A DNA stretch of 64,000 nt, taken from assembly GCA_973895155.1 (NCBI GenBank), contig OZ316894.1, positions 14,808,599 through 14,872,598 on the forward strand, given 5' to 3'. The notes below the pieces were generated by a model, which worked only from the letters and a program-made list of their open reading frames with translations, was not told the origin of the DNA and ran no database searches. Source of the DNA: Marsupella aquatica. Its lineage: Eukaryota; Plantae; Marchantiophyta. Numbering within the stretch: the stretch's first letter is position 1; every line of letters starts with the position of its first letter. The translations under genes were made by a program, and so were the position numbers. Positions 1,229-59,924 of the stretch are shown here, piece after piece.

Positions 1229-1308
1229 CTTTCCCATTCTCCCAGCATCGGACTTTCCCATTCTCTTAGCATCGGACTTTCCCATTCTTTCAGCATCGGA
1301 CTTTCCGA
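1229..1308. repeat. 24-bp tandem repeat, about 3 copies (CTTTCCCATTCTYYYAGCATCGGA)
   Basis: Direct repeats read from the sequence. Confidence 0.85.
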
Positions 1309-5000: not shown

Positions 5001-5049
5001 GAAGAAACTGAAAATTTTAAATTTTTTACGGTGTTTAGACTGCAATTGT

Positions 5050-6000
5050 TGCTAACTGTAACTGTAAACAACATTGAAAGTTAAGAGTTCCTAAGTTATG
5101 GGTAAACTCAGTTTACTAGTTCACTACTTTACAAGTTTATGAGTTAGGACTTAAGAGTTTACGAGTTATGCTTTACGATTTGACGACCCTATGATCGTGA
5201 CATCTTACGGCTAGTTCAACGGGACTCCACGACAGAAGAAGAGCACGCCTTGAAAGGGAAGGAATGCAAGACATAAGCGCTCATTACTAACTTGTCTTCC
5301 ACCTTACCTCTCAGACTCTTGCTGAATTCAACCGGCACTTTAAGGATGTTACTTGGAGACTTCATCCATTCTATTCAAGAATGATGAGGACAGAAGATTT
5401 CCTGTCTCACTATCCTCAAGTATACGCTGCTACCTGCAATCACTATGATGTGATTGGAATTTACCGAGAGGCACTTCGTATAGATTCATGTTACTTAATG
5501 AAGAGAATGCCTTTGATGTATCCTGAGAGACAACTGAGATGTCTACCCTATTCTTGAGGATCACCACGTCAAGCAGAACTTATGGAGGTCACTCAAGCTT
5601 GGACTGTTACCCTTGTGGAACTTCTCGAACCAGATGATATCCGACAACAAGCTTGAAGGAGAGTCTAAGTGCTTTTAGTTAGTCTTTTAAGAATAGTGCA
5701 TCTTTTCCTATTTTTATAAATGTGTTATAGAGCTTTAAAAGCTATGAAACTTATTAAGTGTATAGTCTGTATCTAGGAGAACCCACTGGCAAAATTTCAG
5801 AGTTTTCTAAGCCAAGAGTAGAAAGTTAGGAATAGTTGAAATTGTTAAGTTTTTAAGTGTATCGCAATTATAGGTTTACAAGTTACGGATTATGGCTTAC
5901 GCTTTTATGTTTTTACGAGTTTATGGTTTTACGCTTTAGATATTTTTACGAGTTTACGAGTTTACGATTTACACTTAGCCAATTTTCCGGCTTTTCACTT
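5050..6000. repeat. Probable decayed LTR/5' region with TTTACGAG motif clusters
   Basis: Repeated tttacgag/tttacg motifs at 5130-5180 and 5875-5975, upstream of the gag remnant. Confidence 0.35.
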
Positions 6001-8182
6001 ATTGAATCGTCATTTTAACATTTTGAGGAGTATGAAGAGGCATGTCTCTTCCACCCTATGACCTCTCACTCTGTAGATTTTTACTATAAGACCCCCTCCA
6101 TCACTAGTGTAGTTGATGGTTAAGTTATGCATTTTTGCCTCTTCTTTGTGTTAAACTAGTTGATCATGAATCTATGAGTTCGAGATCAGGTTTAACGTTT
6201 GGAGAGACTTGCCTCCTTCTTGTGTTTTTACCTCTGATTATAAACACAGGAAGTAAAATTCCTTTTGTGCAAATATTTTGAGTTGTAATGACAGATTCCT
6301 TGTTGGTGACTCATTGCAATCTCTTGAGTTCTTAAAGTTAACTCATTGAGTTTAAGTCTTATTGAAATTGATGGATTTTCTTTCATGTTACTTAGTACCA
6401 TCTAAATGTTGAAGTAGTCACTCTTTTAAATCTTGTCTGAGTACCACTTAGAAAGAAAAGACAAGACGTGTTGACGGCACTTTAAAAGGGTAATCTAGTA
6501 AACATTTTAGATCTGAAAAACAATATGGATTTGAATCCTTAAGTCTTTTCATTTTGACTTATGTTTAAGGAGCAAGCTTGGTCAATTCCAAACTCCCTTA
6601 GCATACTTTAAGATATTTTTGGTGTATTTTGTTAATCATTTTCCTTTTCATTAATTTATGGTTACATGATGCTGAGATATCATTGAAAACTTCTCACCGT
6701 TGTGGAGCGATCTTCAAAATACCTTAGTAAAGTAATCAAACTTGATTACTATGTATGGAAAACATCTTAAGTCTATTATTGTTGTTTAAATCTATCAAAC
6801 CAACCCCATCTTGTTCTTTACGGGAACAAATACCGAGTTTGAAGACCTTTAAGTGTGTTTTTGGTTCTTCATAGCAAACTACAGGGGACATACTTGAGTC
6901 TCCTATGTCAGTACTGTTAGGCAGCGCTATATACCAACTTGTTTACTCTCTCACAATGAATAGGTGTCCACCACCTAGGTGTCCCTAGACCAATTGTCTA
7001 GTAAAGCAAGTTAGCTTCTTCTAGTAATGCAATACTTCCTTTTTTCTTCCAAAAATAGGCCCCAAGAGTTCCCCAGTATGGTCGCCACTTATGTCGGGGG
7101 AATCTTTAGTTCTTGGGAAGCATCAAGCTCTTGTTTTTCCTATCTTGGAAGAAACTTTTCCAAAGTACGTCTTTTCTCACCTCACATTACCCTTGCGATC
7201 CCATTTGTCAATCAATTTTCCTCACCATTATCCTCTAAAATATCTCTCACAGCCTAGCTTTGTCCCATTCTACGATGAGCGGCTTCCTCACACTAAGCCT
7301 CGAATCGGCCTATCCTCTTTCCACATAACTTACTTCTCAAGTCAAGTCATGGATTGCAATTTCCAATGAATCCTACAATTAGATAAGTCAATTATAGAAA
7401 ACAAAAATTATGATCTTAAGATTTACCATAGATGATATAATCACAGGCTCTGGCATCCTAAACATAATATTGTATCTTTCATCTCCATACTTTCTAACTA
7501 AAATATCTTTACAATCAATCTTCTTACGACATACCACTCTAATGTCAATAGATGAAGGAAAATCAGACACATTATTAGGAAGCCTATTCAAATCTAATTC
7601 CGGTACATTTACGGGTTGTCTATTAAAATCCATCTAAAATAAAATAAAAATAGTTACATTCCATTCATTTCCATAAACAACAATCGGGTATACAAATGGT
7701 GCATTGCTATTCATAACTGTTTCCATTAACTCAAACCCAAAATGATAAAGAAGATGCATTCTCATGGTATGCTTGCTAAGACAATGAATTCTAATTAAGA
7801 GAGGATTGACAAATGGCACAACAGATGGGGGATAAACTTTAGGTACTCCATTTATCATATTATTAATTACAAACACACTAAATTGATCTCAAGACTAATA
7901 AACATAAAACATAAAATAGTTCTAAGGCCAACAATCAAGTTTGTACCCAAGCATGGATGTAAATAATAAACAAAATATGTGCACAAGAGGGGAAGAGTTC
8001 CTTATAGTGTTGCGAGTCCAACATGATAGATCAAACAATGCAAATGAGGAGAGTGTGCTTCTCTTCACTTTATTTATAGTGTCCCTTTGTGCTTTCCAAG
8101 AGGGCATGGATCGATGCCTTGACCCTTGGATTGAAGCCAAGTGGCAAGCATCAAGCACCTATAAGTGTGCTAATACTATTCA

Positions 8183-8337
8183 TAGTTGGTGGAACTACTG
8201 TGCGTAGTTGGTGAAATTATTACGCGTAACTGGTGAAACTACTATGCGTAATTGGTGCAACTACTATGCGTAGTTTATGAAATTACTATGCGTAGTTTAT
8301 GAAATTACTATGCGTAGTTGGTGAAACTACTGTGTAT
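8183..8337. repeat. 22-bp tandem repeat, about 7 copies (AGTTGGTGAAACTACTATGCGT)
   Basis: Direct repeats; internal AACTAC/GTAGTT inverted motif. Confidence 0.9.
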
Positions 8338-8479
8338 CATTGTAGAATGTACACACTACATATAGAATGTAATATATATGCTCTAATAGTACTACTATGA
8401 AGCTTTAAAGTAAAACCATTTTCACATAAACTCAAATAACACAATATGGATTCTAGCCTTCTAAAGGGAATGCCCACGA

Positions 8480-9800
8480 CACCGTCCGCCAAGCTTCCGG
8501 ATTTATGAACTAGGAGGGCGCCCTTGGCGTCCTCCCTGTGGCTAACACAAACGGCGCAAACCCCATTGGTGAATGCTTGGTCAAGTTATACCTAAACTCG
8601 GCCATTGTTAAGTGCTTTGCCCAATCCTTTTAATTGGCCATTACAAAATGATGCAAGTAGCCCTCCACAATACCATTCATCCATTATGTTTGGCCATCTG
8701 TCTCATGATGATACGCTGCTCCTCTAGTAAGGTCTATTCCGGATAATCGGAACAACGCCTTCCAAAAGTGGCCCATGAACTTGGTATTGCAATCGGACAG
8801 GATATGCAACGGCAATCCCCATTGTTGGAAGCCCATTGTTGGAAGACCAAACACTAGACCGACAACCTCTCGGGCCAAAACCATTTTTGTAGTCAGCAAG
8901 AAATACGTCATCTTGGAAAAACAATCCACGATTGTTAAGATGGAGTTATTGTCGTGGGACTTAGGTAACCTCACAATGAAGTCCATGGAGATGGACTCCC
9001 ATGGAGCCGCAACTACTAGTAAGGGTTGCAAAAGTCCTCCTTTTGCCCTATAGACCATTTGGTTCTTTTGGCACGAGTAACAACTTTGCACGTGGCAAAG
9101 AACCAATTGCTTCATGTCCCGCCAATACACATCTTGCGACATGTTGCGGTACATAGCAGCTTGTCCGCCATGACCTCCCTAGGGCAAGTCATGGTAATTT
9201 TGCAAAACTTCCAGCCTTAGAGACTCTGGGATGTACACACGCCTCTGCTTGTATCGCCATAACTAGACATTATGCATATCCAACCCCAATGAAACGTGCC
9301 TTACTTTGCCTTGGCTACCCCCATTGCTTTGCCATTCCTTGGCTATATAAACTGTCATCCCCATACGCCTCGGCCAGGACCTTTGGCCACTTGGATTCAA
9401 GCATCGTGATCCCATTGATACAATGATGGTCCCTACGCGATAACGCGTCAACTACCGTGTTTGTCTTCCCAGCAACGTGGCGGACTTTGAAATCAAAATC
9501 TCTCAAGAACATCTGCCAACGCATTTCCTTGGGGTTCAACATTGGCTTAGAACTGAAGTACCCTGCTGGTGAGCTATCTGTGTGTATTACCACTTTGGGA
9601 CCGCTCTTAAGGTAAATCTCCCACTTCTTCAACGCATAGATCACCGCATACATTTCTTTTCCGGGGTGATCCAATGATTTTCTAACTTACATGACTTAAA
9701 GGCCACAGGACGCCCATCTTGTTGTAGACAGGCACCAATGGCGTAATCATGTCTTGCGTCTGTCCAAATCTTGAATGGCTTCCCATCTCACTGCCCAACA
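8480..9800 (-). pseudogene. Degenerate Ty3/Gypsy pol (RNase H-integrase)
   Basis: EMYAVIYALKKW, RWQMFLRDFDF, GKTNTVVDALSR (RNase H); YW..MKQ..C.SCQ, PWESISMDFI.LP, YHHETDGQT (integrase). Confidence 0.9.
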
Positions 9801-10339
9801 TTCATTCATGACATGGAAACAATCTCTTTCTTGTGTGCTAACTTGCATATGAAACTCATGCCCAATGATTCCAAACAATTGGCAGTCGGCTTCTTCCCAC
9901 ACTTGATAGACAACAATATTGATTTGCACAAAGAAATTTTACATATATTGACCTGAAACTACTTGTTGACAAAAATGATTCACTCAATTTTACATCGCCA
10001 GCCCTATATTCTGGGGTTCTCTACAGGTTCAGTCTAACTCTGCAAGCACTGGGCCCTAAGGCACACAACTTTCCATCTTCTAATGGGATATCGCATCCCT
10101 TGTAAACTAAGTCGCTACCATACATGCCCCAAATCACTGCAATCGTTACTCCAACCAAGCAAATGACTCCAAACTGATCCATCTCTATAAAATTGCTGCT
10201 TGACCAAAACTGAACCTTGACTAAATAAAATGAAACTCTGGTCATGTTTTTAGGGTTTTAAATAGTAATTGCCCTAATGACTCGACCTCTACTTAACTGT
10301 AACTTGATAATTAACCTCAAAATTTCACTAATCTAATTT

Positions 10340-13300
10340 GCTAAAATCCTGCCATTTCATTGCTCCTTTACTTATCTTTGGGACTCGTCCCCGATGTCCC
10401 ATCAATTTCCATCTCATCTCCGACTATATCATCTGGAATCTGTTGAGATGCTGCTTCTTTGATTGTCATAGATTCCTCCAGATTTTCTTCCTGATGTGGC
10501 TGTTCTACTGGGGTTTCCATTGTCTCCTTGACTGCTTCCTTCATAGCTTCTATGACTTGCTCCTAATAACCTCAATTGTATCTGTAAGGAATTGCTTCTT
10601 TGGTTCTTTCCCTGTGGCTTGCTTTATGATTGCCTTGAGCTGTTTCTCCCTGTAATTTAGTACCATAGTTTTTAAATCCCTTATCCGCTCCTCCATTAGT
10701 TCTTGCTTGGTCTCCAAATCTTCATTGTCCTTTAGCACCTCATTCAACTCTTGTAACTGTTCCCCATTATTTGCTTGTAGCCTCTGAATGTTTGCTTCCC
10801 ACGTTTCTTTCTCCTGAGATAACGTTGTTTCTCTGGCTACCATCTTTTCAAATTTATCCTGCTTGTGGTTCAACTTCTTTTTAGCCTCATCACTCTGTTG
10901 TTGTAATTCTCTCAGTTGATCTTGATTGGTCTCCAGTTTCCTTTCCAGTGTAGCTTGTGCCACCCGCAATTCCTCATTAATTTGCTTTTTCAGCTTTGCT
11001 CTTGTCCACTGTCACTATCTGTACTTGCATCTCAAGCTCATTCATCCTCTGCTTCACAGTTTCCCACATCTGTAACACTGCTGCCAAAGTACTTACTTTG
11101 AGTGTTGATGTTCTTGTTGTCTTAGCTAACTCTCTCACTAATTCCTCAATTTGTTGTTGCTGTTCTGACTGATCTGCTGCTTGTTGTTGTTTTTCAGATC
11201 TGTTTCTTGGCTTGCAATTTTCAATTTGGCTTCCCTGAGTTGTCCTTTCAACCCCCAAATCTGTCTTCTTATTGCCATCTCTTGTTTTGATAGATCGCTC
11301 TTATGGTACTTCATGATGGGTCCAAGAAGTTCATTCAAAAGTATAATTTGATCCACACCTCTCTTCTTAGAAATTGACACGGTTTCTGAAATACCTTTGC
11401 AGCTTTTGACTATGACCGTTGTCTCTCAAATTGTTGCCTTGGTTGGCTTTGGTGTTGACTCTTCTTTCTCCTTTCCTTTGTTGGATGCACACTCCTTCTT
11501 GATGATGAGTCTGGTCAATCATTTCTTGACCTCTTCTTGACTTAAATTTGTATCCATTTTCTGATCAGTCTCCGGTGAAGTCGGTGTGGCTCTGGTCATG
11601 ATCCCTGTGAAAGCCTTTTGGTGACTTTCCTCTCTGTGCTTGTTCTTCTGTATTGGTTCTTGAATCTTGTCTGGCTCTCCTTGATCTGCAGTGTTCCATT
11701 CATTGGTTTTGCCCTCTGGATTCTCTTCTTCCTCTAGTTCCAATGAGCCAATCTCCTGCTCGACGTTCATCTGGTAATCCGTTCTTGAGATTTAGTTCTT
11801 TGGCTCTAAATCTCAGTCTCTATTAAGCTTCTCTTGCCCCGCCTGGTCTTGTAGCAATCTTTATTATTCCCTTCATTATCCCCTCCAACTTCCCTGGTGG
11901 CATGTTGAGCCGTTGTATTTGAGTCTTCAAGTTTGACCGGCTCCTTCTCGGTTCTTGATTTCTTCAATGTCTTCTTCCCTCTTAACCAATAGCGTTTTGA
12001 TGGCTCAAGGGTCTTCTTGATTTTCTCCTAAGCATTCAAATAGTAGTGTACTAGCAATCGTATATGTGTTCCCACCTCCAATGTAATGTTGTCTTCTGAA
12101 CTTTGCAGATGCTCTTTGGCCCTCACCAAAGCTTTTCGTAAACTTTCATAAAACAATGCACTCTAGTTCTTCCAACCATCCTTGCAGTCCTCCACTAGTT
12201 TGATAATGTACCTGGAACATTCATTTCTTGGTTTCTTCCACATCATGGCATGACTGATAAATTTTGCCCTCTACTTGACGACACTCTAGGTACATTGACT
12301 CATCATGAATCCGGATCCCTCTGGCTTACGGAAGCCCTCATTAAAGTGCTTTGATTTGTAGGTAGCTGCAACTCTTTGAGTGATTTTTTCCCCCTTTCAT
12401 TGTCTAATCCAAAGGCGTCCATTATTGTCTTGTAACTCGTACTCACCATCTTATTCAGAAACCTTCCTTCGTTCTTCTGTTCATTCCAGCTCAAAATGAA
12501 GTCTTCCAGGTCACCATCCTTATACCGAGTGATCTCCCAGCCCAAGTTTATGAACTCTGTTAAACATTGTGTCTTGACGAACTCTTGATGTGCTTTCGAT
12601 TGGATATACCCGACAATTTTGAGGGACATCTTCTCTAGTCGTGATTCCTCCTCTAATAGTGCTTCCTCTTCTTCTCCATCATTGATACAATCGTTGATAG
12701 GGTCATGTCTTTGTTTCCTCTTTTCCTCCATGTTTCCTTTGGATGTCATACTCGCTTTTTCCTCCTCACCAGTTATTGAAATCGAATCAACTACTTGCTG
12801 CTCTGATTGCTATTTGCGCTTTGGTCTTTTCTGGTTCCTTCGTCTTGATTTACTTGCATTGCTGGTTTCTCTGGCACGCACATCGCATTGACTAGGATGC
12901 CCTGTCTTCTAATTGTTTCTTCTTGTCTCTTCCAGTTGGTTAACCCTAATCCGTTACTTAGTTTGTCGAAATCTTGTTCTTCTAGTTCCTTCCAAGACTG
13001 GTTGTGGTGTATCCCTTGACCAGATTTAATATGTATACCTGAGTATATTTTACTTAGCTCTAAAAGGTTGGTTGGTTCCCACTTATCTTTGTCTCTCTCA
13101 TTTGTTTCAATACCCATTAACACCCCTAACTCTCTGGTATTTTCATTACGGACACATGGAATTACTGATCTAAGTCTGGGAATTATATTTTCTATGAAAA
13201 TGGTTCTCTCCCCTATCCAATATCCTATTATCATTAAATTCTCAGGATATCTCCCATTTTTCTTAATGTTTGCCCCTTTCAAGATTTCCTTGGAGTACAA

Positions 13301-19624: not shown

Positions 19625-20210
19625 CCAGTCCTCTATTCTCCGTTTGAAGTCCTTTGTCTTTTGTCAGTCCTCAGTTATCTGTTGCTGGTCCTCAGTCCTC
19701 GGTCACTAGTCCTCAGTTCCTTCGTCCGGAGTCCTCAATCCGTTGGCTTCAGTCCTTAGTCTTTGCCATGAGTCCTCGGTTTCTTCCCTGAGTCCTCAGT
19801 CCTTTTCCCTGAGTCCTCAGTCTGAGTCCTCTGCCTCAGTCCTAAGTCCTCAGTCCTCAGTCCTAAACCCTCAGTCCTCAGTCCTTATCCCTAGTCCTCG
19901 GTCCTAAACCATCAGTCCTCAGTCCTTATCCCTAGTCCTCAGTCCTCTGCCCCAAATCCTCAGTCCTTCATTCTGAGTCCTTAGTCCTTTTCCCCGAGCC
20001 TTCAGTCCTCCATCCTTAGTCCTCAGTCCTCTACCCTGAGTCATCAGTCCTCCACCCTGATTGAGTCCTCAATCTGCCATCCCTACTCAATGAGTCCTCT
20101 GGCCCAAGTCCTGAATTAGCAAACTTTTGTCAATCCTTAGTCCTAAATTCCCAGTACCCAGTCTGCCCTTATGTCCTAAACAACTATCCTCAGGGTTTTC
20201 CTGAGTCTAG
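19625..20210. repeat. Degenerate (AGTCCTC)n array
   Basis: Dozens of agtcctc/agtcctt units downstream of the transposase. Confidence 0.9.
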
Positions 20211-20274: not shown

Positions 20275-23200
20275 TGTTGTGGGAGAAATGAGACAAAGAG
20301 TTGGTACCATCTTTACTCTTGGTAGAATATGTACATGTGGCTACGGCCTAAGTAGTTAGGGTAGTTACATAGGTAGTTATCCCAAAGGTAGACTTAACTC
20401 AAGTATGAGTTACAACACTCCCCCTTTGTAACATTGGGGTTGAAATGTTACAATCAAGAGTCTACTTTGGGTATATTCAGTGGTATACAATAGGTTTTGT
20501 TTATGTCTAGCCTATTTTATAAATGGTGTAGCCATCTCAAGTCTACTATAAATGAAAAGCTTCTCCTAATAGATGTCTTATAATTCATGTTGCATGGTAA
20601 AGTGTAAGTGGGGGATGTAATCTCATTAAAACCTCCCCTACTTTCTTTGTGGGAGGAAAGAGTATTACCATCCCCATGGGTGTAACATAATTGGGTTTAA
20701 GCATATAGTGTATGTGTAATTTCTAGAAAGTCTCTTAAGGTGCTTGTCAGCACTATAGGCTTGTTGAAGATCTTCCTTGGTTGATTGTTTCTCGTGTCTC
20801 CTTCCAATCGGGAAATGGAGACTCCTTGATGGTCACCGATTATATGCCATGACAAAGCAAAGTATTAGTACAAAATGAAGATGATATGGTGTAATCCATG
20901 GCCTTGGAATTGGATTGGGTGTCCAACCCTAGATTTGGTGTGGGCATAACCTATTTGCACCACATCACGTACCATATCCACAACATAGGGTTATCATATT
21001 GGGGTATGGCGCACCATCTCTTATGGTGCCTTACCATGCCATGTCTCACCTTATGGTACCTTATGACCTGGTACTGTACCTCATATTATCATATGGTACT
21101 TTAATATCCAGTATACCTCATCAAGTATTGGTAAGTGATTGTGTTAACACCATGTTCAATCATTTATAAAAATTCCTTAGATTTCATGATTTGCTATATG
21201 CATGGAATAGAGTTCCATTTTTAGGTATTCATTGGTGCGAAAGGCACTTGTGCAATAGGCACATCCCATGGGTTACATTGCTTGATGTCAAGTCTTACTT
21301 GAGGTCTCCCCCTCAATTTGTCAAATATATGTCCTTTTTGCCTGGGTGTACAGTAGGCACCCATTTGTTTCCATGTGCAGTAGGCACGGAGCTGTTATGT
21401 GCAGTAGGCACCCCTGGGAAAAATATCTCCCCCTGAATTTATGAAATTAATTGGTGGAAATAACCATCATTAACATTTTCAATAAGTGTTTTCGTAGGTG
21501 CCTTAAATCGTTTTGGCATGGCATGAAGTGTTCTTGTGAATGTTAATACAAATCAACCTTGTTGCAGTTGGCTTTAATAACTCTGAAATGTTTTTTTTTT
21601 GTTTTCAGTCATCATTTGTCTCCGTGTAGATTCTGTACCTTAGCTTCTTTCTTTATGTCCTTACTTCATGTCTTGTTGTTTGGTTTTTCTTTCCTTTTGA
21701 AGAGAAAGTCTCTTTGTTCTTTAGTTCTCCATTCCTTAGTGTAAAATGGTCTTCTTAGAAGAAAAAGGTGGTGGACTGTCCTTTGGTTTGATGGCTTCTC
21801 TTTGTTTGCCTCCTTTGCCCGGCGTCTCGTCTTTAGCTTGTACCACGATCTCCGTCTGCACTGGACATCCTTCTCTCTCCTGGCGTTCCTCACGTTCTCT
21901 CTTTGGTTTTTCGGGTTTGTGCTTCCTTCAATGTTCTTGGATTTATCCTCCTTGCCTTCGGTGCTTATTGTTTCTCCTCTGTCTCGCATTCTTTCCTTCG
22001 AAGTTTTCAGTTTCTCCCTTCGCGTTCGATCATGGACTGTCTTTATATGTTCGCAATGCTGCCTGCCTTGCTCACGATCTGCGTTCGATTTCTGTAGCGT
22101 CTTCTCTCTTCCTATCTTTTCAATTGGGAATTAGGCGTATGGGTGTTCCTTATGAATCAATCTTCTGTATGAGGTCGCCTTCACGGACTGGAAATAGGAG
22201 GTCTGATGACTCATTCCAAAACGCAGATCTCCATGAACGCAGATCTCGTTCGGGTCCTTCAGGTAATCGGCCTCATCGCTATTTCCGAGCTCCAAACGAT
22301 GCTCATTGGTGATAGGAGACGAAAATCGAGGGCATAAAGATCAAATGTGCGGATGGTGACCTCCACCAGCAGAAAACTTCAAGCAATCAGTCGTCGAGGT
22401 CGTCGACTTGCAGGGAGCCATTTGGCCAAGACTGATGGATGTATTCAGATCTTCGAATACATCCATGTCAAAGATTAGATAATTCAATCTAGTAAAGTGG
22501 CCATGTTCTTCTGCTTCAAAGGGAGTTGATAGTCTGGATTCGACCAAAACGATATGGAGTTCCATCTGCATCTCAACTGTCTGAGCTTCTCAGATTCGCA
22601 AGATACGGGCGTGGAACGTGCTCGAAAGCTTGTTAGCTACCCTGGGGTTAGGGAAGGCGTAAGGGAATAATTCTCAAGTGACGTGAGATTGGGATGATGC
22701 TCTGTACGGTACTATCGTGAAGGATTATCGGACAGGGCAGTTTTTGCAGTAGAAACTTTGGTACGTTGACGGCATGATTGAATCCGAAAGCTCATAGACC
22801 GTGCGCGTGAATGTAGAAGGGAGCATAGTTCTGCAAGGAATAGTGGAGTAGCATGCGTCTGTTGCTTCTGCTGGGCCCATGCCTACTTCAAGAAAATAGA
22901 ATCGCGTTCCTCGATGGTTCCAATCACAGGCTCGAAGTCCAGGGAGCCTTTCTTTATCTCCTGCTATCCTTACGAGTTCCTTATGGAATTGAGGCTGTGA
23001 TCTGCGCCTTGGATCGGTTCTCTTATGTGATGATATTGATTTGCATTTTTGTTCTTGCTGTCCTTATCAATTCCTCTCGAATGTTTGATGAATGTCTATG
23101 TCCAATTTTCTTAAGAGTGCTCTCTCGTTCGATCTCTCTTCTTCTTCTCTTCCCGAGCGTTTTCAGTTTCTTCCCTTATCGCCTCGATCTTTCACTTGCA

Positions 23201-23834
23201 GTGTCCTTACGCAATGCATCCTATGTTGCTTTCGTTCATTGCGAATGCCTCCAGCGGTAGACCCTTATCAATCAGAGGTGTAGTTGGTGTGAGAGGCTTG
23301 CTCGCCAGTAAATGAGAAAATGCCTTGGCCACCAACTTCCGACTCCTCGAATGGCTGGAGTTCCAATCACTGACTCGTTTCCAGATTCGTGCTCGCGTCA
23401 ACAACACTGGCTTTGACTGACTGTTGCTATTGCCTTACTGCTGTACCGACTTGAAAAGCGTGCACCGAATAAGATGGCGCCTTGATATTCAATTCACCAT
23501 AGCCGGGATCAATTCTTCCTTGGCCTTGCTCCCAAAGAAAAATTGCTCATGCAGCGCTTCAAGCAGCTCTCGCAAAAAAAAACTTTGGCCCATTCAAATC
23601 ACGTCTTCAGGGCTCTCCCTCCTTTCTTTCTCTTAGATTGAATCGGTCATGGCCTAAAAATTCAGCCAGTCTTAGGCTCGTGCTGATAACGTGTTGTGGG
23701 AGAAATGAGACAAAGAGTTGGTACCATCTTTACTCTTGGTAGAATATGTACATGTGGCTACGGCCTAAGTAGTTAGGGTAGTTACATAGGTAGTTATCCC
23801 AAAGGTAGACTTAACTCAAGTATGAGTTACAACA
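20275..23834 (-). mobile_element. Non-autonomous Copia-like (Bianca-type PBS) LTR element, 3.56 kb
   Basis: Identical 143-bp TG...CA LTRs (20275-20417, 23692-23834), 5-bp TSD TCTTA, PPT AGGGGGAG next to the left LTR, PBS CGTTATCAGCACGAG next to the right LTR; no intact gag or pol. Confidence 0.92.
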
Positions 23835-23984: not shown

Positions 23985-24084
23985 ACTAACTGAGGACTAT
24001 CCACTGATATGATTGTATACTAACTGAGGACTATCCACTGAAGGTTAAACCATATCAGTGGATAGTCCTCAGTTAGTATACAAT
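23985..24084. repeat. Direct plus inverted duplication with a perfect 30-bp hairpin
   Basis: attgtatactaactgaggactatccactga (24012-24041) is the exact reverse complement of 24055-24084; a partial third copy lies at 23985-24011. Confidence 0.9.
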
Positions 24085-25286
24085 AAAGGCTAAGCAGGCA
24101 TTGGATATCACTAGTGAAGGGTAGCATTGAATATTACTTAGTAACTTAGGTCTCTTGTTAGTAATCGCTATATATGTGCAGTAAGATGCACCTGTTTTGT
24201 AATAAATCCCTTGTGCACAATAAAGTTCATTTTAATTGGCCCATCTCTTGTCAAGCTTAGTTTTCAACTGAGAAGTCTCAAGTGGCGTGTCTATTTGGCT
24301 ATATCACTTGAATGTATTAATTTCAATCATCTGGACTTCATGTTTGAGTTTGTGTATTTACTGTCTAGAACATAGCTACAGTCCTTCCCATTCAAGACTC
24401 CCAATTTCCCAAAACATTTTTGGATCAACTATCCCTGACTAGTTCATAAGGACTAAGGAAGAGTTTGATGCGCTTCCAAATGGGACCACTTCCCAGCTCT
24501 AAGAATGGTTAGTATTCTCATTGTCTACCTGTTCCAGATCCAGAAAGAGCAGGACAATGTACAGTAGAGATTTCATATTGGAAAAGTCCAACCTAAGAGA
24601 ACTCAAAACCTACAACCCTGAGAAAGGAGGCTGGAGTTGTCATCCATTATATGTGCCCTGCGGGGATGGGATGGAGTTGAATATTTACTTACCACTGCAA
24701 GAGTAAAAATGCAACCTATGTCCCATAGTATACTAGAAGGTGGAGGTTTTGAAGTCAAGCGCATCCCAAGGTGGAGTTAAACTGTCTAACTTACTTCAAT
24801 AGCCGCTACTAAAAGGTAGTACTTATGTCCCAAAAGGTAGTACTTATGTCCCACAGGAAAGTCATTTGAGTGGGGAAAAATATACGCGCTTCAAAATATA
24901 TTCATGATTGCTCTTGAGTCTTAGTTTACAAAGATTGGAGTAAACATCCAAGTGTAATTGGTTCCAACTTTGTCTAACTACTTCACTATACTACTCGTAG
25001 GTGATCTTCATAGATTTCAGGGACTCAAATAGCTCCCCTCCAAAATTCACACAGGCATCCTTAAGTCTACTGAGCGGCCCCAAGTGGGCTTTCACCGGAG
25101 TAGTGTCACTACGGCTGAGCGAGTTCAAAAACTTAGGATTGTTGTCTTCCTTTGGTATGATCACATGTACACTACTATGTGGCTCAGGGAGGCTAGGTCC
25201 TACTTTAGGCTCACATTTAATAACACTAGTTGACTGTAAAGACCTAGCCACAGCAAGTGCTCGACAGGCATCTTTGTCTTTCTTTG

Positions 25287-25405
25287 TGATGCGGTCATAC
25301 CAGGGCTACTACACCAGATCCCATCAGAACTCTGCAGTTAAGCGCCTTTGGGCCGGAATAGTACTGGGATGGGTGACCTCCCGGGAAGTCCTGGTGCCGC
25401 ATCCA
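25287..25405 (+). rRNA. Full-length 5S rRNA copy (probable retrocopy) followed by an ATCTTTT trailer
   Basis: GATGCGGTCATACCAGGGCTACTACACCAGATCCCATCAGAACTCTGCAGTTAAGCG...AGTACTGGGATGGGTGACCTCCCGGGAAGTCC...GCATCCA, 119 nt. Confidence 0.95.
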
Positions 25406-26449
25406 ATCTTTTATCTTCAATGAGAAGAAGACCACACGGGGAAGAGGGTTTGGAGGCATTGCTGTCTACACCAAGAATCAACTTCAACACATCACCTCTA
25501 TTGAACATGAAGATCCCAACAAGCAGTTCATGGTGGTGAGACTTCATACCAGAGGTACTCCATCATTTCTGATTGTCACCTACTTTGCTCCCCTTAATAT
25601 GAATGTCCTTTTCATGCCTTGCGCTCATCTTCAGCTAAAGGGTGGTATGCAGATGTGTGCAGGTGGGCCCATGCTTGGGATTTTCCTGAACATGAATGGC
25701 CAACACACCCAACCAAGCTAAGAGCAAAACTTGAGCAAAAGGCTTTGCACAAACTTTGGCATGAACCTAGCCCACGGCAGCAATACTACATGAGAGATGT
25801 GAACCCCATGAAGAAATATCGAGAACAAGAATACTTATCTAGCACTATCTCAGTACAACTTAGACAACTTATTGCTCAGTATAGACTAAGCTCACACCAC
25901 CTGAGCAATCTCTTTTGGTTGCTCTTTTCTTTGATTGCATTGTACTTTACTTTTTGTGGCAGCTCCTTTGACTTTCATGGTCCCGGAGCTTATAATACAT
26001 TACCATTACCATTACCATTACCTTGAAGTAGAACAAGGGAGATGGAAGGATATTGACAGGAAAAAGAGGGTTTGTCAACTATGTGATAGCTCTAGTATAG
26101 AGAATGAATATCATGTATTCATTGCTTGCAAGTTTTATGAGGGGGTTAGGATGGCATCTCAAATCTTGGTGAAAGATTTGTATGCATTGTTTGGTCTGCC
26201 CCCTCAGCAACTTGGAAGATATATCTTTGCGGTGGATAGGGAAAGGAGAATAGGTTTGGAAAATCTTTCAGGGCTCTCTAGGTCCATAGGGCTCTCTAGG
26301 TCCATAGTTTCTTTGAGGACATAGTTGTCCTCTTCTGAGCAATCTCTTTTGGTTGCTCTTTTCTTTGATTGCATTGTACTTTACTTTTTGTGGCAGCTCC
26401 TTTGACTTTCATGGTCCCGGAGCTTATAATACATTACCATTACCATTAC

Positions 26450-27535
26450 CATAGTGAATGCCAAAAGTCTCTTTTCCCCTGAATGTGATCTTGCTTGCAT
26501 CCTTGCTCTAGCACAATCCTCGTCAAACCAAGCCTTCATGTTTTGCTTTCTAGGGGGTTTGGTGGAGAAAGTAGAGGCTGCTGCTTGTGCTATGACTTCT
26601 GAGAGCTCAATCTGATCATCCAGGGTATGGAGAAGATGTTCAAAGTTGGCTTTGAAGATGACTTCTCTATCAGGGTCTACAAACAGAGGTTTGGGTACTG
26701 GCTTTCTATGCACTTTGTTTGGGATTGTGGTCAGGTCAAGATGGAACAACAAAGGCAAGTGTGAAGACTCTGGTTGTTGATCAAGTATTTGAAAGTCAAC
26801 CACTCTAGTGGCAGAGGTAGGTGAGGCAAGAAGGTAATCAATGGTACTACATCCTTGTTTAGATCTAAAAGTGTAACCAGATGATTGGGGAAATCTCTCA
26901 AGCCCATTCAATATTCTTAGATTACAAGAAGCTCCCAAATGCAAAAAGTGACGTGTCATGTCATTTGTTCTGGTGTCAAGAGCCTCTCTCACCCAAGGTA
27001 TCTCTTCACTACATGATGACCAAGGTAAAGTTCCTAAGTCCTCACTTTCAGTAAATTGTTCATTATCTACCCTGGCATTAAAGTCCCCCACTATCCATGT
27101 CTCCCCTAGTGGTGATATATCATGAATGACTTGGATTAACCTATGAAATGGATAATGTGCATCAGCAATTCCCATTTTATAGACATTCATATTAAGGGGA
27201 GCAAAGTAGGTGACAATCAGAAATGATGGAGTACCTCTGGTATGAAGTCTCACCACCATGAACTGCTTGCTGGGATCTTCATGTTCAATAGAGGTGATGT
27301 GTTGAAGTTGATTCTTGGTGTAGACAGCAATGCCTCCAAACCCTCTTCCCCGTGTGGTCTTCTTCTCATTGAAGATGGATTGTATGCAAGTAAAGCCTTT
27401 AATGCTAGGTAGAGCATTTCCCTCATATTCCCAAGTCTCCGTGAAAAGCAAGATGTCAAAATTCTCAAACAAAGGTTCCCCTCCAATTGCTGTTTCTATG
27501 GAAAGTCCTGAAACATTCCATGCCATGATTCTCAA
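26450..27535 (-). pseudogene. LINE ORF2 AP endonuclease domain, truncated
   Basis: WNVSGL, LFTETW, GGIAVY, IVGDFNA, TIDY, SSHLP motifs. Confidence 0.9.
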
Positions 27536-27547
27536 GGTCCCAATCCA

Positions 27548-28318
27548 TCATTTAGAAACAACTCTCTTCTTATTGGTAACAACAGCTTGTCCATTGCGCA
27601 AGTAGGCTACCAATCCTTGGTCTTTGGCTACCCTCACCTTCTCAAGCTCAATTTTCCTTGCTTGGACTTGTGTGGGAGTCAGATCATCATCCAACCAAAT
27701 CCTTAGCCCTTTAAGCATGCTCCTGTTAGCCATCACTCTAGCTTTCTCGGATTCAGCTGCAAACTTCACCAAGATTGGACGTGGAAGGTCCCCCTTCTTT
27801 TGCCCAATCCTATATGCTTGCAAAATGATAGGGTCATGCACTTTCATCTGAGATTGGAAGAATGAAATTGCTACCTTCTTGGTGTCTTCCTTCTCCTCCT
27901 CAACAAGGCCTGATATTTTGCAGTTGCTGACTCTTGCATGCTAGTTCTTGTGTTCTTCCTCTAGTGCTCTCCTCTCCTCCTCCTTGGCTTGGACAAATTC
28001 CATATGTGATTGTTTTGCAGCCTGTGCAAAGGTTTTGAGCTTCTCCTCAATCTCCCCTACAGCCTCATGTATCACTGATTTCTGTGGGCACATACTCTTC
28101 TCCATGTCTCCAAAACACGATGCAAGCAATGAGAGTTGCTTACCATTCTCCTGAGTTTGAGATCGAAGATCACTAATCAACCTCTTTTGCTTGACATTCT
28201 CATTCTTTAGCTCCATCACCTCCTTGCTGAGCGTGGTAATCTCAATTGCGGAGTTTTCAGCCACAACTAAGATTTTCTCAAGCAAAGCCTTGAGATGGGC
28301 AATCTCCTCCGTTGCCAT
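27548..28318 (-). pseudogene. LINE ORF1 (coiled coil plus L1/Tnp22-like RRM-CTD), with one CAG>TAG stop at 27941-27943
   Basis: YRIG, PRPILVKF, IWLDDDLT motifs; this codon is CAG in copy 2. Confidence 0.85.
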
Positions 28319-29169
28319 CACAAAGCTGAAACTGTTGTTAGAATGTACTCTTAGACGACAAATAGAAATTGGGAGCAGTAGAGGATGTCAGTTGCAGCTC
28401 TACCTTTGCCAGTGATACACTCTCACTGTTTGCAACACTCTGGCAAAGTCTGAGCTCAAACCGCAGCCGATTGCCCTTCCAACTCGAAGTGAAATTTCGC
28501 CCCAAGCTCAGAATCCCGAAACTGGACACGTAGCAGATCGTGCATGCTAAAGTGCATACCAAACGATGTCGGTTGCAGCTCTAACTTTGCCAGTGATACA
28601 TTCTCGCTGTTTCCAATGCTCTGGCAAAGTGTGAGCTTAAATCGTAGCCAATTTCCCTTCCAACTCGAAGTGAAATTTCGCCCCAAGCTCAGAATTGCGA
28701 AATTGGAGACGTAACAGATCGTGCATGCTAAAGTGCATATCAAACGATGTCGGTTGCAGCTCTAACTTTGCCAGTGATACATTCTTGCTGTTTCCAATGC
28801 TCTGGAAAAATCTGAGCTCAAACCGCAGCCGATTGCCTTTCCAACTCGAAGTGCCTGAAGAGCTCAGGTTGGCTGTTTCTAAATTGTACCAAGAAGTGCG
28901 CATCAAACTTTCAAAGGAAACCTCTGAAGAAATCTGGAGCACTCTTGGGGTGATCCAAGGTTGTCCTCTCTCAAGTGAAATTTCACCCCGAGCTCAGAAT
29001 CGCGAAACTAGAGACGTAGCAGATCGCGCATGCTAAAGTGCATACCAAACGATGTCGGTTGCAGCTCTAACTTTGCCAGTATGCTATCATGGAAGTACTG
29101 AATGGCACATTCACAGTTCACTCCTTAAGGACACAATCAAGATCCAGATACTACAAAGCACATACTCTA

Positions 29170-29830
29170 CTTGACCCAGGACTTGACCAAGGAAAGGACT
29201 TGTTTGCAGAAGGGAGAAATTACTTGAATCACACCCACTCCTCAAAAAGGAGAATCACTCCTTCTCTAAGGACATGCACTCCCTGTTCGACTCCTTTTTC
29301 GAAGACGTCTACTACTTTAAGAAGGACATGCACTCCTTTCCAAAGGACAAACACTCCTAAATGAACAGTCCTTTGGAAAGGAGTAACACTCCTTTTACAA
29401 GGACCGAAAGTCCTTTCAAAAGGACTATTGCTCCTTTGTCAAGGACCAACTGTCCTTTCAAAGGACTAGTGCTCCTTTGTCAAGGACCATCAGTCCTTTA
29501 AAAAGGACATGCACTCCTTAACAAAGGAGTGACACTCCTTGACCAAGGACATGCACTTGCTTCAGAAGGACCTGAACTCCTTGGAAAAGGAGTCAGACTC
29601 CTTTCACAATGGACATGGACTCCTTGAAAATTGACACCCACTCCTTCACGAAGGCCACCCAGTCCTTAACAAAGAAGAACAACTAAGAGGTAAAAAAATG
29701 GTTGACAAGGGCTCACAGTCCTTGACAGAGCAGATTTCAGAACTCGTTTAATTGACACAAGTCATGAACTAAGTGTAAAAGGACTGTACAAGACTCGCTC
29801 CTGTGTACACTCCTTTCAAAAAGGACCAGA
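29170..29830. repeat. Degenerate AAGGA(C/G)/(C/G)TCCTT repeat field, likely a DNA-transposon subterminal region
   Basis: Alternating aaggac/aaggag and actcctt/gtcctt motifs with about 20-bp spacing. Confidence 0.75.
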
Positions 29831-30595
29831 CCCCTCATCTAAGATTACTCAGATTAGAGAGTGACCGTGCTATTACCAACAAGACTTTGCTAAAGGTTCC
29901 TCATCATTTGCACATGACATTTGCCAATAGAGGGTTTAGTGAAGACTTACCAGTGAGAAACTGAGAATTGCTCAAAAATATGATTTGCGGCTGGTCTTTC
30001 GAAGCTGCCCAAAGAGCATAGAGGAAGTTTTAAACACAAAAGGCATGAAAATCACGATATGCGCATTGCAAAATGCACACCACATCTTCAACAGCCACAG
30101 AATGTACGACTTAAAACGTTATCCGAGGCATATTGTAAAGCTTCTTCTTTGGCCTAGCATCTACACCATCGCAATTTGGTGGAGGTATTGTCGGTCCATA
30201 AGGGCTTGGAGTCTTCAGTGAAGAGTATGTCTTAAAGGTGACATCTGCCTCTGGGGAAAATGGGAGAGTGGCACTAGGCGTTAGCACATGTTGACCAGGC
30301 TTAGCACTCAACAACGGTATTAATTTCACCTTCCTGCTAGAATCTACATCACACTTCCATTTTTTCCCTGAATCCTCATCCTCAACCTTTGGTGACAACA
30401 TGACCATCTTGGATGATCTGTCTTCACCACCGCAATCCTCAATAGCTGCATCCTCAACCGTGGAAGAAGGTGTTATAGAAGCCAAGAATCGCTCAACAAT
30501 CTCTTGCAAATCCTGCTCCACAACAGCAGACCATGTTCCATAAGAAGCAGTACACAGTGAACAGTGCTCAACATCCATTCATAACCCATCCATCT

Positions 30596-41900: not shown

Positions 41901-43952
41901 TTCATTGAAACCCCATATATTACCGCCCGGCACCAAGGGACCAGTCCCAACCTGTCTTCCGCTTGCCACCCTCTTCACTCTCTCGCACATCTATCTCCCG
42001 ATATTTCATGCATAGCCGAGCCCACCGAAAGCTCTCTCCCTACAATCCCTCCCAAATCAACTTTCTCGTTTCCTGCTGCTGCTGATGTATGTTTGTTCTC
42101 CCCTATTTTTGTTTACTGAATTTGGTCTCTCCACACTTCTTGCTTGACATTACTGTTTTTCTCCTCCCTGGATCCAAACATGCCTTGTGCCCCGTGCTCC
42201 GACTTGCATCCTTTTCTTTACTAAGGGGGGGACCACAGCCTCCAGCCATACCTTGGATGCCGGGCCTGGTCAAGACGGTGGTCGGTAGCTCGTTTTTGTT
42301 TTTTTCTCTTTTGTTTCCCAAGCTTCTGGGCAAGGGCATTACCATTCTGGATTCTCCGCGAGGCGCCACTAGCTTTTTTTCTCGGTTGCCCGTGTGCCTG
42401 CCTTCTTAGTTTTGTTTTTTCCTCAAGTGACCAGGCCATCGCTGTATGCAGATTTTTCTTGTTGTATTCATATACAGTATTTTATTGTTCTATCTAGGCT
42501 GTGGCAAGCCAACAAACTGTTGACAACCAACATGGAATAACAACTATGCAGTGCAATGGCAGAGGACACTGTCCAATACAGGAATGACATGGTTATGTTT
42601 TCAATTCCCTGCTTGGATGAGGCGTGGTGTTGCTTGTAATCATGTATTTCTTCACACTAGAAAAGCAGTCTGTCAGATGAGGTTGTCGGGATTGTCTGTG
42701 GGTCAGTCATCTTACGGACACCTAGCAACGTCAAATGAATGGCGGAAACGGGCCATGTTGTCATTTTGAAATTTGTCTTTCCTTTTGCCATGCTACCCAA
42801 TCACTTTGTTAGTCCATGAGTCATAGATTCATAGATTCTATGTTTTGTGCTTTGTCTAGAATGCTATGGCGCCCATGCTACAATTTGTGGTTTTTGTCTA
42901 AGCACAAATCCTCTCTGTGCCTGGTCTCTGTGTCCCGTCATTTGGATTGATTGTGCAGACGTTTCCTCTTCTCCCAGTCCTTGTCATCCACCAGCCAAAG
43001 CACATTGGATTGTTTTCAAAGGAGGGTTGTGTAGTTTGGAGGGTTTGATCTATGCAGCAGAATTGAGCAGATTGGCGGTTGTTAGTTTCTTCTTGTAAAA
43101 CCTGTCTGTCTTTTCTGCTTTTGGCCATGCTCCTTCACTTCTTGCTGCAAGCTCAATGTGCTTCAGCTATGGCAATATTCACTTACCCTATCCCAACGGC
43201 ACTGCCATGAGCTGTAGGACAGCCAACAGAAGCAGATTGTATCGATTGCATGTAAGTCAGGGTATTTTATGTATTGCGGAACAACTGTCCAAGTATGCTG
43301 CAATGGTCGGTCTTGCGCAGCTGAATGAGCCAATTTCATTTTCCCTGTGCACTTCTATTTCTCAGAGAATTCCCTGGTCATGCTCATTTCCCCCAGAGTT
43401 AGAAAACAAAGAAGAAGAGCTGACTAATTGTAATTCCAATCCATATCCTGATCGGTCAAGGATTGTTCACTACATTGGCCTTGTCATTGGCCGAGGTCAC
43501 CAAATTTTGCTTGGTTTCATTCCTGTGGAGCACTGCTGTGATGGATTTGTCGTAGCATTCTGCAAACTCTCACGGTTTGCTTATGGCCATTATTTGCAAT
43601 TTGCTGCTACTAATATGTCTTCTTCTTAGCAGCATACACCAGAAGTAAGCAATAGTGGAGGTTTAACTGCACATCAACACATCTAGTGAACTACCTCTCT
43701 GCTGCTCACTGGAGGGTGAGACTTTCACTCTTTTTGGATATTGTAGTTTGTAAGCAAGTTGATTAGGAGTGTTTCATGCTATGTTTACACTGTGACCCCT
43801 AGCTGGAACCAATGGAATGACACAGTGAGTGGGAACTGATAATTTAAGGTTGGTTGCTGTTGGTGAGGCAAGTACAGCTCCTGCTCACCTTGCTGATCGA
43901 AGGTGCTTATCAGAGGACGTGAACACACGACATCTCCACAAAAGCAACACTT

Positions 43953-44402
43953 ATGGTGAGGACCCGCAACGCTGAACATGTGCGGCTTGCACGCAAGGCA
44001 GAGATGTTGCGCCTTGAGTATGTCAGACTTGGGATCCTTCCAGCCCAGTCTGCATGGTACTTTGAGTACCCAGTTGTTGCTAGGAACAACTACAGCCAGC
44101 CTGTACCTGCTTCTCCACCCTTCCCAACATCCTTGGTATTTCTGTCTCTTGTACATGACCCGCCACAAATTAGGGCCCAAGGGTGTGTGCACAGTTGCCA
44201 ATATGACTGTCTTGCCTGTAGGGCTTCTGGCCTAGAGTTGGATGACCGTTCTCTTGGATGTCAGTTTTTTCACAGAGCACAATGTATTATCTGGAACCAC
44301 TCGCCATCCTGTAGTGTGCCTGGTGATGTCACTTGTCCTGCCCTCCCAGACCCCACCACCGGTCACTTTGGTGTCTACACATGTTTGGATCACACGCTCT
44401 AG
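43953..44402 (+). CDS. Unknown Cys/His-rich 149-aa protein, cargo copy A
   Basis: Intact ATG-stop ORF; clear homolog at 56708-57160 (GC.HSCQYDC.ACR, CI.WNH, CPALP). Confidence 0.75.
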   Translation: MVRTRNAEHVRLARKAEMLRLEYVRLGILPAQSAWYFEYPVVARNNYSQPVPASPPFPTSLVFLSLVHDPPQIRAQGCVHSCQYDCLACRASGLELDDRSLGCQFFHRAQCIIWNHSPSCSVPGDVTCPALPDPTTGHFGVYTCLDHTL

Positions 44403-45071: not shown

Positions 45072-45752
45072 ATGGCACGCCCTAAAATCCGAGCCAAGAA
45101 GCGAGGGACAGAGGTGAGCAACACAGGTGTAGTTGGGCCAGATGGTAGTAACTTCTCCGCAAGTCAGATTTTCCAGAAGGCAGCTCATTGTTGTGCCATT
45201 TGTGACGATGGTGGTGGCTTAGCCATATGTGAGGGCCCTTGCATGAGACATTTCCACCTCAACCCGGAGTCTGACCTTGCTGCAGAAAACAACTGTCCAG
45301 AGGTGGGCCTCCCGTCAGCACACTAGGGAGGCTGGATGTGCACTGATTGTTTGGAGAAGCAGGCTAAGTGTGCACAGTGTGGGAAGTTGGGGTCTTATGA
45401 GGGCTCTATTGATGCTCCACCACTTGTTAGGAAATGCCCTGACAGATATTGTGTGAGGTTCTTTTGTTTTTCATGTTTGCCCGATCTTGCCACAGCTTGC
45501 CCACTTCATAAGTGCAAGGCATGTGGTCAGCAGGATGAAGATTTTTGGGTGGACATAGTCCACTGTGTTAGGTGTCCCACCATGTGGCACTTTCATTGTT
45601 TGAAGGAGCGTCAAGCAGAAGGCTATGCTTGTGACAGACACATCTATGATCACTCTGCACATGGTGTTGATCGATGGATCTTCTATTGTCATCGCCATGC
45701 CATAGATCCTACTTTGCACACTCCCATGAGAGATCACATTTCTTGGCTTTGA
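45072..45752 (+). pseudogene. Stand-alone EDM2/NSD-type PHD finger cassette, copy A (one in-frame TAG at 45324)
   Basis: CAICDDGG.L..CEG.C.R.FH, CPLHKC..C, CVRCP..WH..CL and FYC..H.ID..L.TP.RDHI match the EDM2 PHD region as I recall it. Confidence 0.85.
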
Positions 45753-46350
45753 ACCTGAATAATGTACATGCATAGTGCACCTGATGTGGATACCTTGGAG
45801 ATTGCAGACATTCCAATTTTGAGAAGAAGGACCTCTGTAGGAGAGGATGCTTAGGCAACAAGTACCCTAAGTTCATTACTTGTTCCTGGGTACATGCCTT
45901 CAAAAACTCCCCTTAAGCCTTCTAGGAACTTTTTTAACTCTGCAATCATTTTGATCACGACTTACATGACACTGCTTAAATTAAATCAGGACTTCTCATT
46001 ATGAGCATATAAGTTACAAGGCTATTTAATTTGCGAGAATTCCCTTAAAGTGTACCAACATTTTGTATTCTCATTGAATGTCTGCCCATTTACAACATCT
46101 GTATGTGGCATCACAAAACAATTGCACTTGTCACCTTCAATATTGTGAAGGCACATATTCAAACTATGAGGTGCATGCTTGCAGGTGTCTAGTACGTTTG
46201 TCCCAATATTTCTCCCGTTTGGAATCGGAGCAGAGACTCACCAGACGATTGGACTGGACCAAGTTATAAACGCAGCATTTTAAGGGCCCTCCGATTATCA
46301 GGTGAACGCATTATCTTCCGGTCTACAGTGATTAGGTGGCCCGTGTGTAC

Positions 46351-47202
46351 ATGGCCTCTAGGAAACGTACAAAGGTTGACCACCCACCTCTGTTGGCTGG
46401 AATCAAAGCCATTTTGATTCCTGGCCACTATGGGTTCACCCAAGTGAGTTGGCCAATCGTACAAAAACGATTCTCAGAGTTCCATGGGACTGAAGTCAAG
46501 GACATCACTCCACAAACTACACATGTTGTTGCGGGGACATGGCTGGATGTGATGAACAAGTGGTCATGGTCCTTCATTGATTCTGCCATTACCAACCAAG
46601 GTCTAAAAGTAGTTGAAGTCTCTTGGCTGACCGATTCTGTTAAACATAGGTGTGTACAGAGTACTGAGCAATATGAGTTGTGGGAGAGTGTCAAGGAGGC
46701 CACTGCAGAGGCTTTGGCTGAAAAGGAAGCCTATGAAGCAGCGGAAGAGAAACCCAACTTTGCTTCTGTCCAATATGGACCTGTTGTCAACATAGGACAC
46801 CATCCTATGCGTGCAGATGCTATATTGAATGAGCATGGCAAGGAGAGAAATACCATTATGAAGGGGTTCAGTGTGGTATTTGCAGAAGAAGGAATTGGGG
46901 AGACTAAGTGCAGACTGTACAAGTCTATAGTTGTTGAGCTAGGTGGAACAGTGGAGGAGAGTCTAATAGAAACCTCCACTCATGTTGTAGGTCTGTCATA
47001 CATGAAAATATGCAGAAAATTCTTTAAGACAATAGTGTGTGATTTTGTCATGAACAACAATCTTTGGGTGCTTTCCCCTGATTGGCTTCTGGAATTAGCA
47101 GCTAGAGGGAAGCGACAGAATGCTTGGGACTTTGATATTTTTGAGGCCTGGCCCTCCAAGATTCAGCGGAGATGTATGCTTAGCAAAGGTGGGAGAGAGT
47201 GA
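46351..47202 (+). CDS. Tandem BRCT-domain protein, 283 aa
   Basis: Two BRCT repeats: G.EV...TTHVV...VVEVSWLTDS and LGGTV...STHVV...VLSPDWLLE; intact ORF. Confidence 0.8.
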   Translation: MASRKRTKVDHPPLLAGIKAILIPGHYGFTQVSWPIVQKRFSEFHGTEVKDITPQTTHVVAGTWLDVMNKWSWSFIDSAITNQGLKVVEVSWLTDSVKHRCVQSTEQYELWESVKEATAEALAEKEAYEAAEEKPNFASVQYGPVVNIGHHPMRADAILNEHGKERNTIMKGFSVVFAEEGIGETKCRLYKSIVVELGGTVEESLIETSTHVVGLSYMKICRKFFKTIVCDFVMNNNLWVLSPDWLLELAARGKRQNAWDFDIFEAWPSKIQRRCMLSKGGRE

Positions 47203-59912: not shown

Positions 59913-59924
59913 TGGATTGGGACC

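Follow-up and report, generated by a model that had tools for sequence, protein, structure and literature searches.

The completion of non-LTR retrotransposon insertion, that is, the priming of the second strand and the joining of the 5' end, is still an open question, and jumps made in series from template to template have been described chiefly in vitro and, in genomes, as double jumps. Human L1 ORF2p makes template jumps in vitro, uses RNA or DNA templates and accepts 5-nt or RNA primers (PMC10830420), and inversion, fold-back and deletion have been documented at L1 sites (PMC10191854; 10.1101/2024.12.14.628481). U6 RNA has been reported in chimeras with L1, L2 and RTEX-type elements (PMC4476161), the 5S/L1 chimeras of the human genome are described as truncated and antisense for the most part, with target duplications of 7-15 bp (10.1101/2025.02.02.635956), and double jumps are rare in the Magnaporthe element MGL, where one tripartite element stands against 33 bipartite ones (PMC2104539). 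In the liverwort Marchantia, RTE-X elements cluster at the centromeres (10.1101/827881).

Here, we describe a LINE composite in a 64,000-nt stretch of genomic DNA from the liverwort Marsupella aquatica (contig OZ316894.1; hereafter the window). We present evidence that it joins a complete 5S rRNA to seven pieces of one LINE family, and we weigh a single episode of serial template switching against four other readings. In the literature searched, a set without most subscription papers and without supplements, there was no plant 5S-LINE chimera, no second strand primed by a small RNA and no comparably long series of jumps; multi-piece 5S chimeras could be among the supplementary data of the TiMEstamp preprint.

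Results

Architecture of the composite

The interval 25283-29080 is a composite of eight pieces with seven joins and one slip, consisting of a 5S rRNA copy and seven LINE pieces (Table 1). From left to right the pieces run 5S(A)-B-C-D-F-G-H-I, of which A, B, C, D, F and H are in sense and G and I in antisense orientation. A sibling copy of the LINE in the same window, copy 2, served as the coordinate frame, and all LINE pieces lie within ~0.6% of it. By sequence, the composite appears to be a young copy of one LINE family together with a full 5S rRNA. An earlier note on this DNA had recognized the seven LINE pieces, all of which map to copy 2 in the order and orientation that it gave, and had read them as one LINE insertion built by at least seven switches; its LINE pieces and joins stand, and the first piece, the 5S rRNA, had been missed. 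Its slippage duplication of 18 bp is indeed a tandem one (26270-26307, inside piece F).

Table 1. Positions in the window of the composite, its left flank and the sibling LINE copy
Feature	Position	Strand	Match or remark
Left flank, repeated host sequence	24045-25282		insertion breakpoint ~25282
3-5 nt between host and 5S	25283-25287		possibly non-templated filler
Piece A: 5S rRNA (25287-25405) and 7-nt trailer ending TTTT	25287-25412	+	Rfam RF00001
Piece B: endonuclease-domain fragment	25413-25607	+	copy 2 60084-60278; Pfam Exo_endo_phos on parent ORF
Piece C: late ORF2, colinear with F	25606-25902	+	copy 2 63156-63453
Piece D: 3' UTR end and (CATTAC)4 tail, between C and F	25901-26022	+	copy 2 63747-tail
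Piece F: CCHC-type region, 3' UTR and (CATTAC)3 tail	26020-26452	+	copy 2 63450-tail
Piece G: EN-RT linker, EN, ORF1, intron, 181-bp 5' UTR monomers	26450-28853	-	copy 2 61010 backwards
GT-AG intron of 78 nt, retained in the 5' UTR part of G	28326-28403	-
Piece H: RT-domain fragment of 126 nt within a 5' UTR monomer	28848-28973	+	copy 2 62341-62466, 0 mismatches
Piece I: 5' UTR (outermost 108 nt), colinear with G	28973-29080	-	right breakpoint 29080
Sibling copy (copy 2)	58787-64000	+	spliced 5' UTR; itself rearranged

Both repeat tails are internal, a tail is found at neither outer end, and both outer ends are of the 5' type, so that plain TPRT, like twin priming as described in PMC2912911, is excluded. 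The claim that the locus goes beyond a single twin-priming inversion is thus borne out by a tail that sits inside, beside the inverted block; the combination that marks twin priming, an inverted 5' segment with an outer 3' tail and a target duplication, is not present in the composite. There is no target-site duplication between the flanks, whose longest common word, 6 nt, lies away from the breakpoints. A canonical small-RNA/LINE chimera would have a 3' tail and a duplication around the whole, and here an inverted block follows the tail instead; the absence of gene flanks around the 5S and its fusion, in sense, with the 5' end of the LINE sequence are as in such chimeras. The composite works like a small-RNA/LINE chimeric retrogene without being a canonical member of that class.

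The 5S rRNA head and the left flank

The 5S piece matches Rfam RF00001 over the complete model (positions 1-120 of 120; 107 bits, E 1.5e-22). Contigs from four of 11 sequencing runs (X1, X2, X3 and X4) match the window up to 25282 and then differ from all of 24000-30500, and their host continuation beyond that point is absent from the window at up to 3 mismatches. Real 5S genes have other upstream sequence, seen in contigs with loose ends before 25286, and a single X2 contig matches as far as 25412, beyond which it runs into a longer T tract. Because the flank contigs diverge at 25282 and those of 5S genes differ upstream, the 5S belongs to the insertion, which had been taken to start at 25413 and in fact starts ~130 nt further left. 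A resident 5S gene was rejected on the same grounds, a host repeat on its left and other flanks in the real genes.

The 5S piece is likely a copy of a Pol III precursor, whose end the trailer would represent. Two of the five sense LINE pieces end within the ~25-nt tail, and these tail-ended pieces, together with a 5S bearing transcript ends, point to RNA templates, for which the 5S head is the strongest evidence. With regard to a SINE3, a 5S-derived SINE with a multi-copy 5S head and a LINE-type tail, the window holds one 5S copy, and no 5S-LINE join is among the joins listed for the X1-X4 contigs. Since the left and right flanks have similar contig depths, a deletion within one host repeat at the insertion site is likely.

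Of the 10 nt that precede the T-run of the 5S, nine match the element at a single site (1 sense, 0 antisense), and this site ends 1 nt before the origin of piece B. This match was noticed post hoc, ranks 6th by duplex energy (-11.4 vs -18.3 kcal/mol) and scores 8 instead of 9 under a stricter offset rule; that annealing may have guided the capture of the 5S is offered as a lead and not as a result.

Microhomology and excursions at the joins

The microhomologies quoted in the earlier note (tc, ct, acc, cat and gaagtg) are all present, and with a further single a they give 2, 2, 3, 3, 6 and 1 nt at the six LINE-LINE joins. Microhomology at the joins is above chance: under a null of random breakpoints within the element, which averages 0.70 nt, the observed sum of 17 nt was reached or exceeded in 0.017% of 200,000 draws (P=1.7e-4).

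Pieces C and F are colinear, as are G and I, and D and H are out-and-back excursions inside them. Each excursion re-enters no more than 3 nt from its exit, an event with a chance of ~0.0016 each, and may do so at adjacent nucleotides if the microhomology is allowed for; neither requires a target duplication, and both fit polymerase excursions better than nested insertions with target duplications. The sense block (5S-B-C-D-F) is best explained, as first proposed, by repeated template switching of the RT guided by microhomology; D and H are excursions rather than independent moves. Splicing was rejected as the origin of the B|C join, where GT-AG is absent. RNA structure upstream of breakpoints gave an inconsistent signal, with three of eight breakpoints in the most stable 15% and two of eight in the least stable 10%. 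At the H|I join (28973), a 7-nt word past the end of H equals the 5' UTR word before re-entry, and both are missing from the product.

Microhomology-mediated break-induced replication and polymerase-theta templated insertions are candidate routes by which DNA-level repair could have scrambled one resident antisense copy via its own opposite strand. The LINE pieces could all derive from no more than 5 kb of one copy, the 1-6 nt microhomologies suit such repair, and host DNA was lost at the left end. Flanking host DNA is nevertheless absent among the pieces, the tail forms the end of two of them, and the 5S is not of local origin and shows the ends of a transcript, so that we regard an origin in repair as improbable.

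Copy 2 and the LINE family

ORF2 of copy 2 matches Exo_endo_phos (E 3.9e-11) and RVT_1 (E 3.6e-31) in Pfam, as in an APE-type LINE. An ORF1-like frame lies upstream of it (59138-59912), which the Atlas places near Transposase_22/Baculo_FP clusters (0.86-0.89, a lead only), and the element ends in a (CATTAC)n tail. Contig depth climbs toward the 3' end in all four runs, giving the combination of ORF1, repeat tail and 5' truncation. Among 70 matches, the best named homologues of ORF2 are proteins of the liverworts Calypogeia (62% and 65%) and Riccia (38-52%), in keeping with a liverwort host. An ORF1, a short tandem-repeat tail and a C-terminal CCHC-type motif are features of the RTEX clade and are not exclusive to it. 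All three are present in the window family, as features shared beyond RTEX; the CCHC-type motif in the region of piece F, where there is no Pfam match, is what we take its translation to be. The closest relative among those retrieved (L001) has a 6-nt repeat tail. The available parts of PMC5753468 and PMC12477816 give no defining features for RTE-X membership.

The exact 3'-end pattern of the family was found at no locus in metagenome contigs. A protein scan returned 79 loci, the best at 65% identity and too distant to bear on the window family; internal self-matches of at least 40 nt at 90% occur in eight of them. One distant relative (L049) has a 3586-bp direct repeat (675-4260 and 7230-10815, 99.9% identical), possibly head-to-tail copies.

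Copy 2 is rearranged by a tandem duplication of 603 bp (60545-61147 and 61152-61754). Its tail runs into another 3' fragment, which begins at 63428, and at its 5' end lies host DNA and not upstream LINE. A Zepp-like self-targeting LINE would insert into its own copies, with both halves of the target preserved, and would form clustered arrays. Tail-to-internal joins recur, in copy 2 and in other samples, and the other half of the target is missing in both window composites; with host DNA at the 5' end of copy 2, simple nesting fails in two of two. The spliced form of the 5' UTR (joint 28325 to 28404) is found in copy 2 (at 59133) and in contigs of X1, X3 and X4. Since G keeps the intron that copy 2 is without, the two derive from different RNA molecules. 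Within G, two adjacent private changes (27064-27069) amount to a 6-bp micro-inversion of the family sequence.

Fifteen joints were listed for the contigs aligned to copy 2, of which 14 have a short side of at most 30 nt and one has a known intervening sequence. Three were set aside as normal or diverged forms, and the remaining 12, with short sides of 20-28 nt, are weak. The joint 58973-59133 was dropped from the family evidence as unspliced UTR, and those at 62139-62261 and 62297-62555 as probably a diverged subfamily; among joints on the composite itself, those at 25876-26062, 26220-26393 and 26227-26393 were dropped as probably diverged copies or an interrupted reference. Position 63030 is the landing site of three of the 15 joints from different upstream sites (X2 and X4; short sides 21-22 nt), and is either a hot spot or an alignment artefact. 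The tail is joined to 63550 in contigs of X3 and X4; elsewhere it leads through a 49-nt inverted linker piece into sense sequence at 63532, with both joints in X1 and X3 and the second also in X2. The joins suggest, at the level of sequence, that the RT of the family may be unusually jump-prone.

The window junctions themselves were not spanned by any contig or read seen in the X1-X4 contigs, which drop rare variants. None of the six LINE-LINE junctions is among the 15 joints on copy 2, where tail and duplicated regions are partly suppressed, and letters private to the window are absent or nearly so in X1-X4 at the places listed. It seems that these runs are without this allele or that the contigs lost it. 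An assembly or library artefact from chimeric or amplified reads would account for the missing spanning record and for both window copies being rearranged. Against it, the pieces have biologically exact ends (the 5S transcript, the tails and the clean excursions) and bear point changes of their own, and short-read contigs from two studies contain joins of these same classes, one of them in three runs; we consider an artefact very improbable.

One or two events at the F|G join

At the F|G join the tail abuts antisense sequence at ...CACTATG. This is the normal geometry of TPRT, a tail at its target with 3-nt pairing, and would be explained if the locus records two events, the second being TPRT of 5S-B-C-D-F into an older, antisense copy of nearly full length (G-H-I). 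The new insertion, still with four jumps, would have removed the 3' 2.2 kb of the old copy as well as host DNA, and its placement requires Zepp-type self-targeting or a hot spot. Zepp hits its own copies (PMC8226300) and L1-mediated deletions are mostly <10 kb (10.1101/2024.12.14.628481).

Once changes assigned to copy 2 by X1-X4 were removed, the sense pieces have one private change in 1173 nt and G has 5-8 in the 1878 nt that it shares with copy 2, a range due to two unresolved sites and one double change. These counts mildly favour two events, with ~3-5 times more changes per base in the antisense block, although the difference between the blocks is not significant (one-sided p 0.08-0.26). 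At 26680/60780, G and copy 2 have in common an allele that X1-X4 lack or carry only rarely, which suggests a common source lineage.

One X1 contig sets antisense tail repeats against the same TTCACTATG 9-mer as the F|G join (30 letters, a single contig) and returns to downstream sense sequence. It can be read as an independent short tail insertion at that site and equally well as a hop there. The contigs of X1 and X3 in which tail, 49-nt inversion and sense sequence follow one another are awkward for nesting, as is the missing half of the target in both window composites. We hold two events, the main rival reading, to be somewhat unlikely. The claim of a single insertion is moderately favoured only, with the antisense block as a potentially older copy (5-8 vs 1 private changes).

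The sense tail followed by antisense sequence could also be explained, without loss of the 3' half of G, by fold-back self-priming, in which the RNA tail primed cDNA at an internal AUG and the RNA-cDNA chain was later copied and joined into a break. The retained tail pairs with the lost side of G over ~5 nt with one bulge, and ORF2p extends RNA hairpins in vitro (PMC10830420). Re-entry into downstream sense sequence at the same site in the X1 contig is not predicted by self-priming, to which we attach scarcely any probability.

Other features of the window

Among the surroundings of the composite is a very young LTR element (20275-23834, minus strand) with identical 143-bp LTRs (TG...CA), a 5-bp target duplication, a purine tract and an interior of ~3.3 kb without a long ORF, which is probably non-autonomous. 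An imperfect palindrome of ~100 bp with internal direct repeats (23985-24084) lies near the divergence of the host-repeat contigs at 24045. Degenerate tandem arrays occupy 29311-29674 (21/42 bp) and 19688-20060 (7/21/41 bp), and an array of ~700-bp units at 83-91% identity occupies 50331-53128. Frames at 46336-47202, 45327-45752 and 57883-58389 match BRCT and an NSD-like PHD finger, the segments 43952-44223 and 56707-56987 are 69% alike, and decayed LTR-retrotransposon frames with integrase zinc-binding and core matches lie at 8684-9686 and 2800-5051 (both minus strand).

Discussion

The reading that we prefer, at about an even chance, is a single retrotransposition episode in which the RT hopped serially between cDNA and RNA templates and ended on a 5S precursor RNA. 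The pieces and joins are observed; from them we infer the direction of synthesis, which the product cannot reveal, as well as the templates and the occurrence of just one episode. One new strand would have been made from right to left, starting from the right flank with a first-strand cDNA of nearly full length as template (I), hopping to element RNA for 126 nt (H) and returning to the cDNA, from which G would have been copied. At ...CACTATG the RT would have hopped onto an RNA tail through CAT/ATG pairing, copied F with one 18-nt slip, visited a second tail (D) and returned to the same nucleotide (C). It would then have skipped 2.9 kb to B and ended on the 5S precursor, possibly recruited by annealing of its 3' end, which matches the element just upstream of B, before the strand was linked to the left flank and host DNA was lost. 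Both leading readings call for a minimum of four RT jumps in the sense block, or of three if the 5S was attached by RNA ligation.

A broader proposal, that the RT of the family routinely concatemerizes RNA, cDNA and Pol III RNAs in vivo with exact returns, and that the 5S annealed to cDNA and primed the second strand, is in our view doubtful. If such an RT exists, the family would cluster with itself without target-site specificity, and a birth route for plant 5S-headed SINEs would follow. If the composite is a single insertion, it is a natural record of the completion steps, with up to seven joins, exact excursions and a captured 5S precursor, and the family would supply a candidate enzyme for testing those steps. 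If two events took place, what remains is a plant 5S-LINE chimera made by four jumps, and self-targeting may be involved. The composite is a striking example at one unvalidated locus and not a new system.

The composite looks like a real and extreme case of known activities, double jumps and small-RNA/LINE chimeras being known in animals and fungi. Like Marchantia LINE/RTE-X, the window family is a liverwort LINE family; no centromeric satellite was recognised in the window. As in Zepp/ZeppL, the tail of one copy lies on an internal site of another, and copy 2 has head-to-tail 3' fragments; Zepp is of the L1 clade and forms one cluster per chromosome, whereas the window composites lie in other repeats and include one antiparallel join (PMC8226300). 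Inverted sequence, microhomology at the inversion join and target loss are shared with twin priming and L1 deletion (PMC2912911, PMC10191854, 10.1101/2024.12.14.628481), but in twin priming the tail marks the outer 3' end, with the inversion 5' of it, whereas the composite has internal tails and 5'-type outer ends (PMC2912911).

As in U6/L1, 5S/L1 and other small-RNA/LINE chimeras, a Pol III RNA ending in oligo-U stands in sense orientation at the 5' end of LINE fragments. Unlike the human 5S/L1 cases, the 5S in the window is full-length, sense and followed by its trailer, has no target duplication, and heads seven pieces in a plant. Finally, the composite resembles MGL and mammalian tripartite chimeras in having more than one jump per insertion and in the ambiguity between double jump and nesting (PMC2104539, PMC4476161); it departs from these chimeras, which have two jumps, in its number of jumps, four or more and probably seven, in its returns to the nucleotide of exit and in its changes of strand.
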